Shown here piece by piece: positions 1-7,987 of a DNA stretch of 16,140 bases. A model generated the notes under the pieces. That model was given only the letters and a program-made list of their open reading frames with translations, was not told the DNA's origin and ran no database searches. Position 1 is the first letter of the stretch; the number at the start of each line of letters is the position of its first letter. The DNA comes from a virus. Its lineage: Duplodnaviria; Heunggongvirae; Uroviricota; Caudoviricetes. The position numbers and the translations under genes were made by a program. The DNA is taken from IMG/VR virus record IMGVR_UViG_640753025_000003; one strand, 5' to 3'.

Positions 1-1284
1 TTACAGACTTCTGGAAGGTTGCGCAGCTCTTACAACACGCGGTTGATCTTCCGCGGCGTCTTCCAGCGCACTTAAATCACGGTCTTTCACTTCTGGCATT
101 TTCAGCGCAGAGATTAAACCAATCACTGAATATGCCATGATCATAATGGCGATCGGATACCAGGATTCCGTCATGGTGCAGAAAATACCCGCCAGGATAG
201 GACCAAAACCGGAAGCGATAAGACCACCAATTTCTTTAGAAATAGCCATCCGGGTAAAGCGGTTTTTACAGCCGAACATTTCTGCCATGGTAATATTTTC
301 CAGAGCAAATAATCCCAGCACCGCACAGTTATGAATCACAATCAGTGCAACCATAATGGTGCTCGGGGCATAGCTTTTATCTACGATGATAGAAAGCATT
401 GGCCATGCCAGCACAATCGCGGAGGTATTCATAATAATATACGGGATCCGGCGACCAATTTTATCGGATAACCAACCAAGGAACGGAATGGTCATAAAGC
501 CGAGAATCGAACTGATCATCAATGCATCTGTTGGAATTGCTTTGTTAAACAATAACGTCTGCACTAAATAGCCCGCAAGGAAAGTCTGAATTAAACCTGA
601 GTTACCCGCCTGACCAAAACGCAGCCCTGTTGCCAGCCAGAAGGATTTGCTCTGGAACATGCTACCAGCAGGTGCAGGTTTTGCTGTCGGTTGGTTGCTG
701 TCGTTAACCTTCTCAAAAACCGGGCTTTCTTTCAGATTCATACGCAACCAGATAGCAAAGACCATCACGACAACGCTCGCCAGGAACGGTATACGCCATC
801 CCCACGCCAGCAGTTCCTCTTTACTGAGAATGAAGAACATAAAGGCCCAGATTGCCGTTGCGCTTAAAGTTCCGCAGTTAGTTCCCATAGCCACAAATGA
901 GGAGATAATTCCGCGCTTACCTTTTGGCGCATATTCCGCCAGCATCGTACCGGCACCGGAAATTTCCGCACCTGCACCCAATCCCTGAATAATACGCAGC
1001 GTCACCAGCAAGATGGGGGCAAAAACACCAATCTGTGCATAGGTCGGTAACACACCAATTAAGGTGGTACAGATCCCCATCATGGTGATGGTAATAAAGA
1101 GCACTTTTTTACGCCCTATTCTGTCGCCCATTTTGCCGAAAATAAATGCTCCGACAATACGCGCCACATAACCTGCACCGTAGGTTCCCATTGCCAGAAT
1201 TAACGCCATTGCCGTTGATGATTCAGGAAAAAATATTTCATGAAACACTAACGCTGCGCCGAGCGAATATAACTGGAAATCCAT
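1..1284 (-). CDS. ydfJ: MFS transporter of the metabolite:H+ symporter (MHS) family; appears 5'-truncated, starting inside the first transmembrane helix
   Basis: 427-aa ORF with stop at 1-3. Two MFS motif-A-like loops (GKMGDRIGRKKV, LSDKIGRRIP) and many hydrophobic segments. N-terminus MDFQLY aligns to the conserved (E)W(F/Y)DF motif that lies about 25 residues into ProP-type transporters, so the native 5' end seems missing. Confidence 0.8.
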   Translation of the reverse strand: MDFQLYSLGAALVFHEIFFPESSTAMALILAMGTYGAGYVARIVGAFIFGKMGDRIGRKKVLFITITMMGICTTLIGVLPTYAQIGVFAPILLVTLRIIQGLGAGAEISGAGTMLAEYAPKGKRGIISSFVAMGTNCGTLSATAIWAFMFFILSKEELLAWGWRIPFLASVVVMVFAIWLRMNLKESPVFEKVNDSNQPTAKPAPAGSMFQSKSFWLATGLRFGQAGNSGLIQTFLAGYLVQTLLFNKAIPTDALMISSILGFMTIPFLGWLSDKIGRRIPYIIMNTSAIVLAWPMLSIIVDKSYAPSTIMVALIVIHNCAVLGLFALENITMAEMFGCKNRFTRMAISKEIGGLIASGFGPILAGIFCTMTESWYPIAIMIMAYSVIGLISALKMPEVKDRDLSALEDAAEDQPRVVRAAQPSRSL

Positions 1285-2067
1285 AATTCACAGGTGTTTT
1301 TTCCCATCCTGTGGTTTCCTTGGCGTTTTCTAGGTTTTTTCAGATAGTTGCATTTTTTTAAAAGCATCCTAAGTTCGATCTCAGTGTCTATCTGGGGCCT
1401 ATTTCTGTTCCATATATGCCCCAAAAAACTCCCCAACAGATAAGTAGTTTTTTCATGGATTTACGCGTAAAATCAATAACGGCTGGAAATCATTCAATAC
1501 TCGCACTATCGAAAAATTTACCAGCCAACCGCAGCACGTTCTTGCATAAGGTGTGTCTGCGGTTTTTCAACTATTCAGATACATCACTCCCATCACATTC
1601 ATTCCTCCACATCAAAGGCATATAGGCTATATCACCTTGATATTTTTCTTCTTCAGATAAAAACTGTTATCTATGTATACTTTTAAACCCAATCCGTGTA
1701 GAGTCTCTGCATAAGATAGTTTGCAGTTGCCACTTCAGATTGCGCCATAAACCGCCTGATTTTTGCCGCCACCTGTTAGCATTCCTGTATACCTGAAACG
1801 ACAATGTTTATCTACGAACTTTAAGAACACCCAAGATAAAATTGTCAACTATATCATATATAACACATTACTAATTCGAGGCTATATGAACAGCATACTG
1901 ATAATCACTTCTCTCCTTATCATATTCAGCATTTTTAGTCATGCCCTAATAAAATTAGGGATTGGCATATCCAATAACCCAGACAAAACCGATGTATAAG
2001 TCAACATATCCTGAATCAGACATACAATATCGCAATGAAAATCAATAATATTTTAAGGAATATCTTC

Positions 2068-2301
2068 ATGAAATCAAAAGACACCCTAAAGTGGTTCCCT
2101 GCGCAGCTTCCTGAAGTAAGAATTATCCTAGGGGATGCTGTAGTGGAAGTAGCAAAACAGGGAAGACCTATCAATACCAGAACATTGCTTGATTACATTG
2201 AAGGAAACATAAAGAAAAAATCATGGCTGGATAACAAAGAATTATTACAAACAGCGATATCAGTTCTTAAAGACAACCAAAATTTAAATGGTAAAATGTA
2301 A
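2068..2301 (+). CDS. ydfK: Small prophage protein of the YdfK/YnaE family (reported as cold-shock induced)
   Basis: 77-codon ORF from the ATG at 2068, with AAGGAA 7 nt upstream. The translation MKSKDTLKWFPAQLPEV... matches my recollection of YdfK/YnaE. A long AT-rich leader lies upstream. Confidence 0.75.
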   Translation: MKSKDTLKWFPAQLPEVRIILGDAVVEVAKQGRPINTRTLLDYIEGNIKKKSWLDNKELLQTAISVLKDNQNLNGKM

Positions 2302-2617
2302 TATAATAAACTTACTTTTTTATCATTTTTCCACTTTAACAACATTTTGCTCCACTTTTCCACGACCAAACAACTTGAAATCTGGTTAAAATAACACGCA
2401 ACACTATTCTTCTTCCTTGAGTCCGCCCGGAACTCGAAAAACAAACCGAGTTAAAGCCATTTTTCACAAAATCGATTTTGGGTCTCACCAAAGTTACGGG
2501 GTTGCATACGCATTCGTTTATTTTCGAACGTGTACATACAAATATGCACAAAAATAATCAAAATTATTTTCTGAGATGCATTATGATATGAACACCAATT
2601 TCGTATAGAGTCTCACT

Positions 2618-3208
2618 ATGTCTCGAATTTTTGCTTACTGTCGGATATCAACGCTGGATCAGACCACCGAAAATCAACGCCGGGAAATCGAAAGTGCAGG
2701 TTTTAAAATCAAACCTCAGCAAATAATCGAAGAACACATTAGCGGCTCAGCAGCAACCAGTGAGCGTCCTGGTTTTAACCGGTTGCTTGCTCGCCTGAAA
2801 TGTGGTGATCAATTGATTGTGACAAAACTGGATCGCCTTGGTTGTAATGCAATGGATATCAGGAAAACAGTGGAACAACTGACCGAAACAGGTATCAGAG
2901 TGCATTGCTTAGCATTGGGGGGCATTGACCTGACCAGTCCAACAGGAAAAATGATGATGCACGTAATTTCAGCAGTCGCTGAATTTGAACGAGACCTTTT
3001 ACTTGAACGCACTCATTCCGGGATAGTAAGAGCCCGCGGCGCAGGGAAACGTTTTGGTCGACCACCTGTGTTAAATGAAGAACAGAAACAGGTGGTATTC
3101 GAACGAATTAAGTCAGGTGTAAGTATAAGTGCCATTGCCCGGGAATTCAAAACCTCGCGGCAAACCATTTTAAGAGCCAAAGCAAAACTTCAGACACCTG
3201 ACATATAA
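2618..3208 (+). CDS. pinQ: Serine recombinase / DNA invertase (PinQ/PinR-like)
   Basis: 196 aa. N-terminal YCRISTLDQ motif with the catalytic Ser, resolvase/invertase catalytic domain, C-terminal HTH ([19 protein letters not shown]). Convergent with the tail fibre gene. Confidence 0.9.
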
Positions 3209-3305
3209 AAAATAATCTCGGTGTGAGATGCTTTACGTCTTCCAAGCCCCCTTCCTTGCCGTAAATGGAAAGATACATCTAATTATAGAATTTATATGTT
3301 TTACC

Positions 3306-3479
3306 CTACGGCAGTGCTGGCCATTCAATATCCTGTGCAGTTGACGTATCAACACGGTTCAGCAACACCCGATACTTTTTCCAGGCTTCCAGCAACAAGG
3401 TTTCTTCCTCCGTTGCGATTTCCAGCTCAACAACAGTCTGAACGTACCGGGAACAGCCTCCTTCAGAGCTTGAAGGATA
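3306..3479 (-). pseudogene. Orphaned 3' end of a tail fibre assembly (tfa) gene, in frame with and directly after the stf stop codon
   Basis: Minus-strand translation of 3306-3479 is [57 protein letters not shown]. The final 35 or so residues carry the conserved Tfa C-terminal signature (W..YR..L.RVD.S.A.DIEWP..P). There is no start codon or RBS; it is separated from stf only by the TGA at 3480-3482. Confidence 0.6.
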
Positions 3480-6400
3480 TCAATGTTCGCTTCCTGTTAA
3501 CTGCCGGACAAGTGCAACCAGTTCGCTTACCTGATTTTCCAGAGTGCTGATCCGGGTGTCTGCTGTTGCCAGATTTTGACGTAGCGTTGTGTTTTCCTCT
3601 TCCAGCGCGGTAACGCGATCATCTGTTTCACGGGCGAACTGAACAAGTAAGCCCGTCACGGCGGCGTAGTCAACATTAAGATAGCGCGTTTCTTCGCGTA
3701 GCTCGTTGCCGTCAACGGTCGGACCTTGCAACTCTTCACCATAATGAGTAAACGATCCCACAGCTTCTGGTATCGCCTCCATTACTTCCTGTGCAATAAC
3801 GCCAGCATAAGGCATCCCGTTTTCCCTGAGCGTGTAGGTGTATCCGTTCATTTTACGGATTGCTTTCGTCGCGTCGCTGATAACGAGAATATCGTCTTTA
3901 AGGTCGCGGTCTGATGACTGATTCAGCGTTGTGCAATTAATAGCGCCATTTACATCAAACAACTGGCCTGCTGACGTTTTTTGCGCATAAAACAGATACG
4001 CAGCAGACGTGCCAACCTCAAAAACGTTTTGTCGAGTACTGGAACCCCACACCCTGACAGAAAACGGTAGTTCTGCATTACCTGAGTTCTGTAAAACAAA
4101 ACGATTGCCAGTCCCTGATTGTTTTGTAAGGGTTAAATCAACAGTTGAGTTAACCTCATTCCTGTTGATAGTGAGCGCCTGCGCTGTAGCCCCGTTAACA
4201 GCACCTGTTTTGAGTTGAACCGTGCCGTCATTACCATTTAACAGTATCTCAGCTCCGCTAAAGAAATTTTTTAGCGACAGCATCTTACTTACGCCGGCTG
4301 ATGAACCCAACGCCCACGCGAGAGAATTACCGGTGCTATCAAACCCACGTACAAAGCAATCCATTTTGCTATAGTCTGACGTGCTTCCAAGGACATCAAT
4401 TCGCCCTCCGCCAGATTTTACCGGACTAGATGTGGTTAACGACCTGACAGTTATATCCTGATTCCATCCGGAAACAACAACCTGACTCCACGCTGTCCAG
4501 TTTCCATTAACAACAAAGCGAACGTATATACGTTTTGTGTCGCTGTTAATCAGCGTTTGCATGTTCGCATAATCTGAATCCCTAACCTTACGAGTCGACT
4601 CTACACGGAGCAAAAAGTTACCGGCTATGCCGTCAGGCTTATTGGTAATATTTGCACCACCTGCAGAGGATGGACAAATATAGTATTTAACTGCCCCGGC
4701 ATCTGACTTGATGATGGTCAGGTTGTTAAGATTAACCGTCTGGCCGTCAATGTTTTCCGGCTCGATGGCTCCTGCTATCCCGGCAATGAACGTAGCAACG
4801 GCTGAAAACGCTGTCGTACCTTTGAAAGCCAGTTGACCACCAATCGTTAATCCCTTGTCGAGTTTCGCTTGCGTGATCAATTTGCTGTTTTGTTTCTGAT
4901 CAGGACTCTCACCAAAAGCCAGATCCCCATTAGTATCAATTCCAAGATACTTTGGGTTCATGTTGTCTAACTTAAACCCAATGGACACATTTTCAGAAGA
5001 ACCAGAACGCGTTAAAACCAACGGCGTGTGCTGTACTCCATAGATGCTGAGCGTAGTTGCCGATGAGTCAGTATCGGTATTTGCAATCTCAATCGTTCTG
5101 CTTTTAATTTTATACGCTACTGTGAGATCACGGACTTCAACCCTCCCGTCGTGACGAACAACAAGATCCCCTCCTGATGTCCCCCCTGCTGTCTTTGCCC
5201 TGATGCGAACTTCGCCAAGCGAATCAGTGTTAGGACCAGCATAGATTATGCCGCGCTCTGTGTTATCGCCAGTATAAAACCGCAAAGCGGTGACTCCACT
5301 GTCTGCCCGCAGGAAGACTGACGGTGTACCTTTTTTGATTGTCAAGTCACCGGTCATTGTATCGCCGGTTTTTTTTACCTGCGCATCGTTCGTTACGTTG
5401 CCAAGTCCAACATCCGATTTCGACGGCTTGTTTGCCGAGCCGTATAGCTCATTGATGCTAAAAGTCCCGTTGTTAAGCCGGGCATCGTTGCCGGCATAGA
5501 TCTTAATCTTCGCGGTTGAGTAGTCGATATTGATCGCTGACCACGTATCGCCGCACCGCGAGAATATACCAGAACCGTGGCTATAAATGGTCGCCGTGCT
5601 TCCGGTCGGCTTATCACCGCGCCAGAAATGACCACCTTTGTCACGCAGAGCTTTTAAGATCTCTACATCGCTCATCTTGCCGTTTGTTGATATCCCGCTA
5701 CCGCCAAGACCGAAAGCGCCTGTAAGCATAGCATTAGAAAGACCCAAATCTGCTTTAGTCGGCTTGTTTAACTGGTCGTAAATCCTTACAACGGGGCTTT
5801 CAACATATCCAGAAGGCGCGGCGGTTTGCTTAACAAATCCGTCTGGAATGTATAATTCCGTGCGTGCCGTCTGCGCCAGTACCGCAACCTTTGCGCCGTT
5901 GATAAATGCACGCTGGAAGGCCCAAACCTCAATAAAGCCATCATCTTTAACCAGGCCGTAACGCATTTGCATGCTATTGATTAGCCCGGTTGGCCCTAAA
6001 CGGCGTATACTCAGGTAACGAGATACATTATCAGCAGTAAGCGAAGAAGGCAGACCGCGCGCCGAGATCTCGATAAAGTCAATGTTTCCGTAAGGGGAGC
6101 CGTAGTCACCGCCGTTAGTAACCATTAGCGTTACATGGCAATTGTTGCTTCCGGGATCGGAAAGTTTCGCGATCTTTATGTAAAAAGACTCATTACCAGT
6201 AACAACGGGCCAATCGTATTGCGTCATCGGGCTGACGAGTCCCCCGACCTTGTCGAGATATTCTTTCGCCTTGTTCTCTGACGCTTTAGCGTTGGTTTCG
6301 CTGACCTTTGCTGCTGACTCACTATTTTTCGCGTTGGTTTCTGATTTTTTGGCTGCTGTCGCGGAATTTGCCGATGCAGTTTGTGAGTCTGCTGCCGCCT

Positions 6401-7256
6401 GTGCGCTGTTATCCGCATTCATCTCAGACGTTTTTGCGGCCTTCGCGGAATTTCCTGCCGCCGTTGCCGAGGAAGCTGCACTGCCGGCGCTCGAGGCTGC
6501 GCTCGTTTCTGATGATTTTGCCGCCACTTTTGAAGCCGACGCATCCCGGGCTGAGGTGGCAGCTTCTGACGCTTTCGTGGTCGCGGTGGATGCAGAAGTG
6601 GCCGCAGATTTTTGTGATGCTGCGGCATTCGTTTCTGACGTTTTCGCTGCACCGGCACTGGTGGCTGCCGCGCTTTTTGAAGACTCTGCAGCGGCAGCAC
6701 TTTTTGATGCTTCAGTAGCCTTTGTTGATGCCGTTCCTGCGCTGGAAGACGCTGACTGAGCCGACGACGCGGCCTGTCCGGCTGACGTGCTGGCTGCGCG
6801 TGCGGAGTCCGCAGCATCAGTCGCATGGGTTGCCGCCTCACGGGCTGATGTGCGGGCATCACTGGCTGACTTCTTCGCGGCTGCCGTGTTCTGTGCCACT
6901 GCGGACGCGTTACGCGCCACCTCTTCCACCATCAGTTCAAAGCGGCGCAGTGCCTCCGGACGGACATCATCCTCCGTCATGGCACCGAGAAAATCATTCA
7001 GCGTACCCGGTTGTGAGTCTTCATACACGGTGATGGTTCCGGCATGCGATGGCGGGAAGCCTTCCACCAACAGAATAACGCTGTACTGACCGTACTCAAC
7101 GTCCATGCTGTAACGCCCGGCTTCATCCGGGTTTTCTGAGGCCACTGTGTTCACCACCACCGTGGTGCTGTTGCGCCTGGCCTTTAGCTGAATGGTGCAG
7201 TTTTGTATCGGCTTACCTGCGCCATCTTTCAGTACACCTGAAATCCGTACTGCCAT
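3480..7256 (-). CDS. stf: Side tail fibre protein (mosaic): lambda-Stf-like N-terminus, Ala/Ser/Thr-rich repeat region, distal fibre region, C-terminal intramolecular-chaperone-type domain
   Basis: 1258-aa ORF with GGGGGG-type RBS before the ATG at 7256. N-terminus MAVRISGVLKDGAGKPIQNCTIQLKARRNSTTVVVNTV closely matches the lambda Stf N-terminus as recalled. Low-complexity A/S/T repeats (SETNA-type) at about aa 125-320. C-terminal 144 aa begin with SDRDLKDDI and contain GVIAQEV, resembling the Peptidase_S74-type auto-processing chaperone domain, then a coiled-coil tail. Confidence 0.9.
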   Translation of the reverse strand: MAVRISGVLKDGAGKPIQNCTIQLKARRNSTTVVVNTVASENPDEAGRYSMDVEYGQYSVILLVEGFPPSHAGTITVYEDSQPGTLNDFLGAMTEDDVRPEALRRFELMVEEVARNASAVAQNTAAAKKSASDARTSAREAATHATDAADSARAASTSAGQAASSAQSASSSAGTASTKATEASKSAAAAESSKSAAATSAGAAKTSETNAAASQKSAATSASTATTKASEAATSARDASASKVAAKSSETSAASSAGSAASSATAAGNSAKAAKTSEMNADNSAQAAADSQTASANSATAAKKSETNAKNSESAAKVSETNAKASENKAKEYLDKVGGLVSPMTQYDWPVVTGNESFYIKIAKLSDPGSNNCHVTLMVTNGGDYGSPYGNIDFIEISARGLPSSLTADNVSRYLSIRRLGPTGLINSMQMRYGLVKDDGFIEVWAFQRAFINGAKVAVLAQTARTELYIPDGFVKQTAAPSGYVESPVVRIYDQLNKPTKADLGLSNAMLTGAFGLGGSGISTNGKMSDVEILKALRDKGGHFWRGDKPTGSTATIYSHGSGIFSRCGDTWSAINIDYSTAKIKIYAGNDARLNNGTFSINELYGSANKPSKSDVGLGNVTNDAQVKKTGDTMTGDLTIKKGTPSVFLRADSGVTALRFYTGDNTERGIIYAGPNTDSLGEVRIRAKTAGGTSGGDLVVRHDGRVEVRDLTVAYKIKSRTIEIANTDTDSSATTLSIYGVQHTPLVLTRSGSSENVSIGFKLDNMNPKYLGIDTNGDLAFGESPDQKQNSKLITQAKLDKGLTIGGQLAFKGTTAFSAVATFIAGIAGAIEPENIDGQTVNLNNLTIIKSDAGAVKYYICPSSAGGANITNKPDGIAGNFLLRVESTRKVRDSDYANMQTLINSDTKRIYVRFVVNGNWTAWSQVVVSGWNQDITVRSLTTSSPVKSGGGRIDVLGSTSDYSKMDCFVRGFDSTGNSLAWALGSSAGVSKMLSLKNFFSGAEILLNGNDGTVQLKTGAVNGATAQALTINRNEVNSTVDLTLTKQSGTGNRFVLQNSGNAELPFSVRVWGSSTRQNVFEVGTSAAYLFYAQKTSAGQLFDVNGAINCTTLNQSSDRDLKDDILVISDATKAIRKMNGYTYTLRENGMPYAGVIAQEVMEAIPEAVGSFTHYGEELQGPTVDGNELREETRYLNVDYAAVTGLLVQFARETDDRVTALEEENTTLRQNLATADTRISTLENQVSELVALVRQLTGSEH

Positions 7257-7267
7257 ATTCCCCCCAC

Positions 7268-7292
7268 AAAAAAACCCGCCTGAACCGGCGGG
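7268..7292 (-). terminator. Rho-independent terminator downstream of lom (hairpin CCCGCC/GGCGGG plus U7 on the minus strand)
   Basis: Plus strand shows AAAAAAA(7268-7274)-CCCGCC-TGAACC-GGCGGG(7287-7292); on the minus strand this is a GC stem-loop followed by seven T. It sits between the lom stop (7321) and the stf start (7256), and the stf RBS overlaps the T-run. Confidence 0.55.
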
Positions 7293-7320
7293 CTGTCATA
7301 ACACTGTGTTACCTGGCTAA

Positions 7321-7920
7321 TCAGAATTTATAACCGACACCCACGATGAAACCGTCAGTGCGCCAGTCACCACTGCCGGAACCTTCATAAGCAATATCAA
7401 TGGCCACGGATTCGGTCGGGTTAAACTGCACGCCAGCCCCCCACGCCAGAGACGTGTTGCTGTGGCGACCGTCATCACTTCCGGTCAGCACATCGTGCGT
7501 TTTCCCCTTGTTGTCAGTTACGCGGAGATAATCCCCGGAGAAAGTCGACACACGGCTGTAAGCCACACCCGCCATCGCATACGCGCTGAACCATTCATTC
7601 ACGCGCACAGACGGCCCCGCCATCACGCTGAACCAGCGGTTACGCACGGAATCCTCATGCCAGCGGGTATCGCTGTAATGCGTTTTTTGCTCATCTTCAG
7701 CGTTGGCATAACTGAATGACGTAATCAGCCCCAGCGTGTCCGTAAACTCATAACGGTATTTCACGTTAATCCCGTTCAGATCATCACTACCGGGAACGTT
7801 CGTCGAGGCATGAAGATACCCTGCGCTCAGTGTGGCCTGCTGCTCAGACGCCCATGCAGGCGCACCGGATACGGCCAGACAGATGGCTGCGGACAAAATG
7901 GCTGCACAAACTTTACGCAT
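7321..7920 (-). CDS. lom: Lom-like outer membrane protein (Ail/Lom family beta-barrel)
   Basis: 199 aa. Signal peptide MRKVCAAILSAAICLAVSGAPAWA, conserved blocks GINVKYRYE, SVMAGP, YAMAGVA and C-terminal IAYEGSGSGDWRTDGFIVGVGYKF ending in Phe, matching lambda Lom as recalled. GAGAGG RBS upstream. Confidence 0.9.
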   Translation of the reverse strand: MRKVCAAILSAAICLAVSGAPAWASEQQATLSAGYLHASTNVPGSDDLNGINVKYRYEFTDTLGLITSFSYANAEDEQKTHYSDTRWHEDSVRNRWFSVMAGPSVRVNEWFSAYAMAGVAYSRVSTFSGDYLRVTDNKGKTHDVLTGSDDGRHSNTSLAWGAGVQFNPTESVAIDIAYEGSGSGDWRTDGFIVGVGYKF

Positions 7921-7944
7921 AATTACCTCTCGCTTTTCTGCAAT

Positions 7945-7968
7945 AAAAAAGGCGCCAGAAATGGCGCC
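7945..7968 (-). terminator. Rho-independent terminator downstream of J (tJ-like; hairpin GGCGCC/GGCGCC plus U6 on the minus strand)
   Basis: Plus strand AAAAAA(7945-7950)-GGCGCC-AGAAAT-GGCGCC(7963-7968); on the minus strand a GC stem-loop followed by six T, between the J stop (7988) and the lom start (7920). Confidence 0.55.
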
Positions 7969-7987
7969 CGCATATGGGTTATAAAAT

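Follow-up and report, generated by a model that had tools for sequence, protein, structure and literature searches.

A side tail fibre gene with a built-in folding domain, followed by a dead tfa remnant, marks a common recombination scar in the Qin prophage of Escherichia coli HS

In E. coli HS, the side tail fibre gene stf of the defective Qin prophage ends in a TGA codon, behind which 57 further codons stay open in the stf frame down to a TAG (3306-3308), and the question is what these codons are and whether their in-frame position has a meaning. The window analysed is a stretch of 16,140 nucleotides of this prophage. Our analysis shows that the locus consists of a lambda-type side tail fibre gene with a built-in folding domain and, behind it, the last quarter, now dead, of tfa, a helper gene for tail fibre assembly that such a fibre would no longer need. 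This arrangement is a common recombination scar that is already present in public annotation, RefSeq marking 3306..3431 as the tfa pseudogene ECHS_RS08095 with the flag 'missing N-terminus', and it reveals no new mechanism. A literature search for a description of the tfa stub yielded no specific paper.

According to the ORF list and its translation, stf encodes a mosaic protein of 1258 aa on the minus strand (ORF 3480..7256, coding 7256..3483, TGA 3480-3482), with the RefSeq entry WP_000290867.1, 'prophage tail fiber N-terminal domain-containing protein'. The gene order J' (7988..10633), lom (7321..7920), stf places it where a lambda-type Stf is found. Its N-terminal module (aa 1-365; 6162..7256, minus strand) comprises a phage_tail_N domain (PF08400, aa 1-134, E 2e-72 in Pfam) and an Ala/Ser-rich stretch (A 34% and S 22% at aa 135-340), and it shares 85% identity with lambda orf-401 over aa 1-284 and 82-84% with mEp460 and PhiR70_1 over aa 1-365, which bears out the lambda-Stf-like N-terminus noticed in the first-pass annotation of this DNA. 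The central shaft (aa 366-933; 4458..6161, minus strand) varies among phages that share both fibre ends, being matched in Ayreon and the contigs L059 and L063 and unmatched in mEp460 and PhiR70_1. The distal part of the mature fibre (aa 934-1114; 3915..4457, minus strand), presumably receptor-binding, ends in ...TTLNQS before a predicted cleavage site and matches phrog_6578 and phrog_4563, both tail fibre families, while aa 934-1258 as a whole are 93% identical to mEp460. Furthermore, aa 306-1258 are ~70% identical to the fibres of two IMG/VR contigs of 54 and 49 kb, in which the fibre gene ends at an intrinsic terminator, without tfa. These matches support a mosaic Stf fibre that probably combines a lambda-type N-terminus with a different fibre lineage. 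HS shares with lambda and K-12 Qin the order J-lom-stf-(tfa)-pinQ and 82-85% identity from Stf aa 1 to aa 284-365; unlike those two, HS carries a replacement of the distal ~900 aa of Stf, and its tfa is represented by the last 45 codons without a start. An NCBIfam scan of Stf and of the stub gave zero matches. Two plus-strand ORFs antisense to the region, 3296..3550 and 3726..3914, were judged spurious, the former because its start sits in a flank absent from the other junction loci.

The last 144 residues of Stf (aa 1115-1258; 3483..3914, minus strand) form a predicted intramolecular chaperone with auto-cleavage activity. Peptidase_S74 (PF13884) matches aa 1115-1166 with an E-value of 9.2e-12 and 45.5 bits against a cut-off of 22, covering profile positions 1-57 of 58. 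Two of the hallmarks pointed out in the first-pass annotation lie within this match, SDRDLKDDI at aa 1115-1123 (3888-3914) and GVIAQEV at aa 1152-1158 (3783-3803), and S1115-D-R-D-L-K1120 at the domain start supplies the predicted catalytic pair, a scissile Ser and a Lys in Ser-x4-Lys spacing. The Ser, the Lys and the domain core are invariant in four relatives, and pN/pS in the domain is 0.20. Moreover, the domain aligns to the long tail fibre protein gp37 of phage S16 (PDB 6F45, 'SSDRRIKKDI', E 5e-5), and the last ~45 aa (aa ~1215-1256) match coiled-coil families and coiled-coil chains in the PDB. An AF2 single-sequence model of the last 246 aa has a mean pLDDT of 45, and its sole confident part, with pLDDT > 90, is a coiled-coil helix at aa 1197-1254 (3495-3668, minus strand). 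The profile match, together with the same Ser-x4-Lys spacing in T5 pb1, thus supports the claim of a self-chaperoning C-terminus, which appears to be a bona fide S74 intramolecular-chaperone domain.

In T5 pb1 the C-terminal chaperone cleaves itself with Ser1264 and Lys1269 (PMC4690869), a Lys five residues behind the scissile Ser as in S1115/K1120 of HS Stf. Like T5 pb1 and the K1F endosialidase (PDB 4UW8, 3GW6), Stf has a C-terminal domain of ~130-145 aa that ends a trimeric fibre and contains a trimeric coiled-coil helix. It differs from both in its low sequence similarity to the solved examples, of which sequence search reaches S16 gp37 only, in its attachment to a lambda Stf N-terminus and in that its cleavage is predicted from the family. 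If Stf works as T5 pb1 and the K1F endosialidase do, three C-terminal coiled-coil helices would start trimerisation and the chaperone would template the distal fibre, after which S1115, activated by K1120, would cut the chain into a released 144-aa fragment and a mature fibre of 1114 aa. Such a self-chaperoning fibre would not require a separate Tfa, as the first-pass annotation had proposed, and this fits what is seen in the phages mEp460, Ayreon and PhiR70_1, in which the single Tfa-like place per genome is the stub; the absence of any other Tfa-like sequence from these junction-bearing phages fits a dispensable Tfa. The viability of such phages is no proof of side fibre assembly, because lambda PaPa grows without side tail fibres.

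What follows the TGA is tfa-derived in its larger part. Residues 13-57 of the downstream peptide correspond to positions 86-130 of the 131 positions of the Pfam Caudo_TAP profile (E 3.7e-19), so that the Tfa C-terminal signature expected from the first reading is indeed there, in frame; only the last 45 of the 57 codons, though, derive from tfa. These 45 codons and their TAG (3306..3442, minus strand) are the 3' end of a TfaQ-type gene, as identified by Pfam, by collinearity with K-12 and by the RefSeq pseudogene. Tfa proteins are built of a variable fibre-binding N-domain and a conserved C-terminal helical domain for which a role in trimerisation has been proposed (PMC9608196), and the stub holds only the latter, not a two-domain Tfa protein. 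It has no start and ribosome binding site of its own: an in-frame ATG, GTG or TTG is missing before codon 28, so that the earlier statement that no start codon is present holds near the beginning of the 57 codons, codons 28 and 29, both TTG, and codon 38, a GTG, being the first canonical starts.

Between the TGA and the stub lies a linker of 36-37 nt, equal to 12 codons if read in frame (3443..3479, minus strand). HS and K-12 Qin are collinear and 98.7% identical from ydfJ through pinQ to window position 3442, inside tfaQ at about codon 146 of 191, where homology with K-12 tfaQ ends; intact tfa genes likewise match HS only up to 3442. The breakpoint is therefore placed at 3442/3443. In the linker, CCTTCA-AGCTC-TGAAGG makes up a small hairpin, and GAAGGAGG resembles a Shine-Dalgarno sequence but is not followed by a start codon. 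The three segregating sites of the linker are first codon positions, and the changes at each of them are non-synonymous. Its exact pattern occurs in 50 IMG/VR contigs, at junction loci only: in 49 of them directly behind the stop of an HS-type fibre (...GAACATTGA), and in the remaining one, a deletion derivative, lom is joined to the linker. It was also found in four phage records. A scan of one genome per species gave no match, and blastn against phages with E up to 10 gave only chance-level matches beyond the junction. A linker seen only at the junction fits a single ancestral illegitimate join.

The junction was present in 804 of the 5,426 complete E. coli genomes (~15%), and HS, mEp460, Ayreon and PhiR70_1 agree exactly in stop, linker and breakpoint. 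The chaperone domains of these three phages are 89-93% identical to that of HS, whereas they differ from HS in the central shaft or distal domain, in the last stub codons and in the region downstream, which is dinI/int and others and not pinQ. On sequence grounds the junction is a single old event shared with several phages; thus the scar of a horizontal swap suggested by the first-pass annotation stands, as collinearity with K-12 and the E. coli genome scan indicate, while a local event does not. The donor side may be reflected in close relatives of the chaperone domain ('...LTGSEE TAA'), many of them in ~54-kb contigs, in which an intrinsic terminator follows and tfa is lacking; two of these contigs are the ones matched over aa 306-1258 at ~70% identity. 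On first entry of the cassette into a lambdoid genome, 36 nt of the 3' untranslated tail of the cassette would have been joined illegitimately to an internal position of a resident tfa, with loss of the start codon and of the variable fibre-binding N-domain, so that the last 45 codons remained. The in-frame position behind the TGA would then be an inherited accident of that one founding event.

A search for relatives of the chaperone module across species in genome contigs found one locus only, in E. ruysiae, of the type that is also present in phage Tritos. There too an S74-chaperone fibre replaced a Tfa-dependent one and left a tfa 3' stub beside a pin gene, adjoining the same pin flank as the HS stub. 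It represents an event independent of the HS junction: its fibre gene is separate and encodes 346 aa, and it also has a terminator and a gene for a membrane protein of 98 aa. The stub there, shorter than in HS (from ATEEET), lies in another frame than the upstream gene and is no less open.

Downstream of the junction we found 38 distinct haplotypes, among which the Tfa C-termini are of at least seven kinds and the 25-nt flanks of 14, and both linker haplotypes combine with five of the same C-terminal types. The pairing of the stub with so many Tfa ends and flanks argues that homologous recombination inside the stub spread the cassette. Crossovers between lambda and the Rac prophage within tfa, as well as recombination with Qin at the stf/tfa homology, have been shown experimentally (PMC3945230). 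The stub would be a non-coding pseudogene which, being near-identical among tfa genes, serves as a passive right-hand homology arm for RecA/Red recombination, and such recombination would have moved the cassette into many lambdoid backgrounds, HS Qin included. In mEp460_ev081 the whole region from stf to recE is replaced, which says nothing on the stub as a crossover arm. The constraint on the stub is relaxed relative to intact tfa, with pN/pS of 0.26-0.30 in stubs versus 0.07-0.13 in intact genes. The frame is open to a natural Tfa end in 37 of the 38 stub haplotypes, one stub (L029) being frameshifted, and an 11-residue core is almost invariant. We attribute the open frames to allele import, although selection on a translated product would look the same: alleles from intact tfa genes would keep overwriting the stub, and it would be open and conserved because of this. 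Several stub alleles are without an intact counterpart in the narrow sample used for the comparison of private variants, 80 intact-tfa loci at ≥ 96% identity. The variants EVW, NTSVVP and KAFLAAWKTY...VNPVWPPPSKR are absent from the intact tfa genes of the phage collection, and therefore their import is an assumption.

Taking these observations together, we consider it highly probable that a self-chaperoning mosaic Stf, one founding illegitimate join and a non-coding stub spread by homologous recombination explain the locus. The junction would then be a clean and well-populated example of tail-fibre cassette movement, in which a single illegitimate join put a self-chaperoning fibre tip in the place of a Tfa-dependent one and the remaining 137 nt of tfa sufficed as homology for ordinary recombination to distribute the new tip among many lambdoid backgrounds. 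Of practical interest for fibre engineering is that natural chimeras of a lambda-type Stf and an S74 chaperone are present in plaque-forming phages without intact tfa.

Several other explanations have to be weighed against this one. The stub could be kept for a cis-acting role of its RNA or DNA, e.g. in forming the 3' end of the late transcript, terminating it or making it more stable, and its retention in every lambdoid context that carries the cassette would agree with that. We regard this as very unlikely: no terminator-like site was found on either strand in 2300..4000, the RNA behind the stop has no significant fold, the sequence past the stub differs among contexts, and the non-lambdoid relatives have a standard terminator directly behind the stop. 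We hold it to be highly improbable that UGA readthrough or re-initiation yields a low level of the Tfa helical domain, which would then serve chaperone-type fibres as an auxiliary trimerisation element; if true, such low-level translation would account for the 37 open haplotypes out of 38 and for the kept 11-residue core.

Extremely improbable in our view is a programmed or leaky readthrough of the TGA that gives some of the Stf molecules a 58-residue Tfa C-terminal extension to aid folding. The stub is in frame with stf and its frame is open in all haplotypes except one, the stop is TGA in 66/66 stf ends matched in IMG/VR plus three phages while relatives outside the junction use TAA, and the trimerisation role proposed for the Tfa C-domain (PMC9608196) would offer a function. 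All in-frame cases, however, descend from one event, and because the junction has a single origin the shared TGA and the shared frame count as one observation; by our estimate, a stub would be in frame and open across the 12-codon linker by chance with a probability of ~1/3 x 0.56 = ~0.19, which is no improbable coincidence. The RNA fold after the stop is no better than in shuffles (z = -0.81). In E. coli, a U such as the one behind this TGA promotes efficient termination. The exclusively non-synonymous linker polymorphisms also speak against readthrough, as does the independent Tritos-type stub, which is out of frame and just as intact. Moreover, the tail that readthrough was first thought to append to the fibre would instead join the 144-aa cleaved fragment, going by the mechanism of the family (PMC4690869), that is, a cleaved-off chaperone that already has its own coiled coil. 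Thus the in-frame relation of the stub to stf has no detectable meaning, and nothing supports functional readthrough.

The chances are just as slight that the stub is translated alone from the TTG at codon 28 or 29, 8-11 nt past the GGAGG in ACGGAGGAAGAA, into a mini-Tfa of ~30 aa. A Shine-Dalgarno-like GGAGG does stand ahead of an in-frame TTG, and the PHROG families phrog_2341 and phrog_3792 contain short phage proteins, 78-88 aa long, that consist of little more than a Tfa C-domain. The same GGAGG/TTG, however, lies inside the coding sequence of every intact tfa and for this reason does not distinguish the stub, most haplotypes have TCG as codon 28, constraint on the stub is relaxed compared with intact tfa and one stub is frameshifted, and a 30-aa product would miss part of the helical domain.

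Finally, the serine invertase gene pinQ (2618..3208, plus strand; Pfam Resolvase and HTH_7, annotated pinQ) is convergent with the stub at a distance of 98 nt, and the exchange of fibre genes is thought to be driven by invertases (cited in PMC3945230), but it is scarcely credible that the junction was made by or is part of a Pin-type invertible segment (as Mu G, P1 C or e14 P) with pinQ switching the fibre ends, given that the window contains no gix/hix/cix-like site with three mismatches allowed, no long inverted repeats around stf or tfa and no inverted second stf-C/tfa set, and that the same junction lies beside dinI/int or other invertase-free flanks in mEp460, Ayreon and PhiR70_1; pinQ is flanking context, outside the mechanism of the junction.

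The window matches the chromosome of E. coli HS (NC_009800.1) at 100% identity and covers the defective Qin prophage located in ydfJ. According to annotation and Pfam searches, its minus strand carries, in this order, lysis genes, cold-shock genes, the gene of a DUF1441 protein, a terminase fragment, a truncated J, lom, stf and the tfa remnant, followed by the flanking pinQ on the plus strand. The J tail-tip gene has lost its N-terminus (881 aa left) and adjoins a 127-aa N-terminal fragment of the terminase large subunit gpA (both within 7988..11010, minus strand); therefore one deletion took the head genes and most of the tail genes, which makes the HS copy of Qin defective, so that its stf can act only as a recombination reservoir for incoming phages. 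HS Qin retains far more than K-12 Qin, in which 3443..12472 has no counterpart.

The stf gene (3480..7256, minus strand) is an open reading frame of 1258 codons, for which the first-pass annotation had proposed a self-cleaving chaperone C-terminus and, behind it, the scar of a horizontal swap. Pfam searches identified phage_tail_N at residues 1-134 (E 2e-72), Peptidase_S74 at residues 1115-1166 (E 9.2e-12, over the curated cut-off) and coiled-coil matches at residues 1215-1256, confirming the S74-type chaperone end. The motif SDRDLKDDI starts at S1115 (3888-3914) and GVIAQEV occupies residues 1152-1158. The Ser-x4-Lys pair, unchanged across the four relatives compared, has the same spacing as the scissile Ser1264 and Lys1269 of T5 pb1 (PMC4690869), and the closest solved structure by sequence is the S16 long tail fibre (6F45), aligned over SSDRRIKKDI. 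Such a fibre would fold from its own C-terminal chaperone, then self-cleave, and would need no Tfa; in phages mEp460, Ayreon and PhiR70_1 no Tfa-like sequence was found besides the stub, which is consistent with Tfa-free folding.

Behind the stf TGA (3480-3482), 57 in-frame open codons run to a TAG at 3306-3308. Residues 13-57 of this peptide match Caudo_TAP positions 86-130 of 131 (E 3.7e-19), as well as several Tfa PHROGs, and RefSeq labels 3306..3431 an incomplete tail fiber assembly protein missing its N-terminus; the proposed Tfa C-terminal remnant is thus real. Window positions 1 to 3442 are collinear with K-12 Qin (98.7%), the K-12 equivalent of 3442 falling within tfaQ, 137 nt ahead of its end, and the match to intact tfa genes of phages and E. 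coli genomes stops at the same position; the stub is therefore 3306..3442, and the 36-nt linker at 3443..3479 is not tfa. Identity to tfaQ-type alleles is only ~73% at 3426-3442 and near-perfect from CTGGAAATC on, suggesting that the first six stub codons (VQTVVE) are a leftover of the original recipient's tfa allele. At the other end, Stf shares 85% of residues 1-284 with lambda orf-401 and 82-84% of residues 1-365 with mEp460 and PhiR70_1, while residues 306-1258 are ~70% identical to fibres of two IMG/VR contigs (54 and 49 kb), which puts the left joint at about residues 306-365. The region was correctly read as a scar; its components and arrangement are of known kinds and already annotated.

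The junction is old, common and of single origin. In mEp460, one of a set of phages reported to complete lytic and lysogenic cycles (PMC9836094), and in Ayreon and PhiR70_1, the fibre end (GSEH TGA), linker and tfa entry point are all as in HS, and the likeness gives out only at the last few stub codons. A pattern scan located the linker in 50 IMG/VR contigs, in 49 of them behind this fibre's stop, and a 201-nt spanning probe (at least 80% covered) detected the junction in 804 of 5,426 complete E. coli genomes, whose annotations call the fibre an S74 family peptidase or a tail fibre protein and the stub a tail fiber assembly protein. The linker was not found in a one-genome-per-species set or in other phages.

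The stub occurs in 38 distinct versions over the 52 loci whose downstream sequence is long enough to compare. One version is frameshifted, and the other 37 stay open as far as a Tfa-type end; the Tfa C-termini are of at least seven kinds and the 25-nt flanks of 14. Five of the stub ends are shared by the two linker haplotypes (SSP..W and SSS..R), which requires recombination within the ~140-nt stub. Red/RecA-mediated recombination of lambda with Qin and Rac prophages at stf/tfa homology has been shown experimentally, with Rac crossovers mapped within tfa (PMC3945230). The pN/pS ratio is 0.26-0.30 for the stub, 0.07-0.13 for the same codons of intact tfa and 0.20 for the chaperone domain; the three segregating sites of the linker are all first-position and non-synonymous. 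This fits a pseudogene that intact alleles overwrite time and again and that has also drifted somewhat. Weak selection may also act on the stub, since for several stub alleles no intact counterpart was found in the phage collection and the sample of intact tfa is narrow.

Readthrough of the TGA, the earlier proposal for adding a Tfa-like tail, finds no support. The common frame and TGA descend from one event and so count once, and we estimate the chance of an in-frame stub open over the 12 linker codons at about 0.19. Neither RNA structure beyond chance (z = -0.81) nor a terminator was found after the stf stop. As in T5 and K1F, the chain is predicted to be cut at S1115, so any extension would ride on the chaperone piece that is let go, and this piece contains a coiled coil already; moreover, the stub lacks the Tfa N-domain, the part that binds fibres (PMC9608196). 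A natural control comes from phage Tritos and E. ruysiae, whose junction is an independent event. There, as in several IMG/VR contigs, a separate 346-aa S74 fibre is followed by a terminator and the gene of a 98-aa membrane protein; Tritos and E. ruysiae then have a shorter tfa stub (from ATEEET) and, after it, pin. Although out of frame with the gene upstream, this stub stays open as far as the same DIEWPALP end, hence an intact-looking stub can exist without a frame link. Readthrough is thus unlikely to matter. Genes with closely related chaperone domains (LTGSEE TAA), many of them in ~54-kb contigs, have a strong intrinsic terminator immediately behind them and no tfa. As for pinQ, it is flanking context only; the window was found to have neither a gix-like site nor a long inverted repeat nor a second fibre set in inverted orientation, and in mEp460, Ayreon and PhiR70_1 the neighbours of the same junction are unrelated genes.

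Several further observations concern the compared loci. The short phage proteins (78-88 aa) of the families phrog_2341 and phrog_3792, which are among the PHROG matches of 3306..3479, are essentially the Tfa C-terminal domain, and a ~93-aa ORF type (MLPQHSDIEIAWY...LEIATEEE...) occurs in loci L021, L042 and L129; therefore mini-Tfa genes or annotated stubs may be common. The remaining linker contig (L198, IMGVR_UViG_2908572912_000001, ~3700..3800) has lom codon 55 (NGINVKY) fused to the post-stop linker through ATAT microhomology, the rest of lom and all of stf being gone and the tfa stub kept. In the mEp460 variant mEp460_ev081 (LR597641.1) an intact tfa, a different stf, a pin recombinase, an integrase and an exonuclease replace the S74 fibre and stub, which looks like wholesale replacement from a Rac-like prophage. 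The predicted 98-aa membrane protein is conserved and belongs to phrog_1443, where no function is assigned; its gene lies straight after the fibre terminator and ahead of the independent stub in Tritos (L005, 4728..5021) and E. ruysiae (L220), and has an internal stop in L069-L075. These seven sibling loci carry a 458-aa reverse-transcriptase-like ORF and a 183-aa membrane protein between the S74-type stf and dinI (L069, 4002..5901), which may be anti-phage defence cargo.

Within the window, 15058..15714, between the lysozyme and holin genes, is unmatched in K-12 Qin by blastn, whereas both flanks match at 88-91%; RefSeq places a YdfR-family pseudogene and a small hypothetical gene there. The Ala/Ser-rich part of Stf (residues 135-340; A 34%, S 22%) contains degenerate direct repeats spaced by multiples of 42 nt, or 14 aa (6285..6692, minus strand), where Tandem Repeats Finder reported none. 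An Arg/Pro-rich 461-aa ORF antisense to J (8990..10375, plus strand) probably arises from the composition of J's coding strand.
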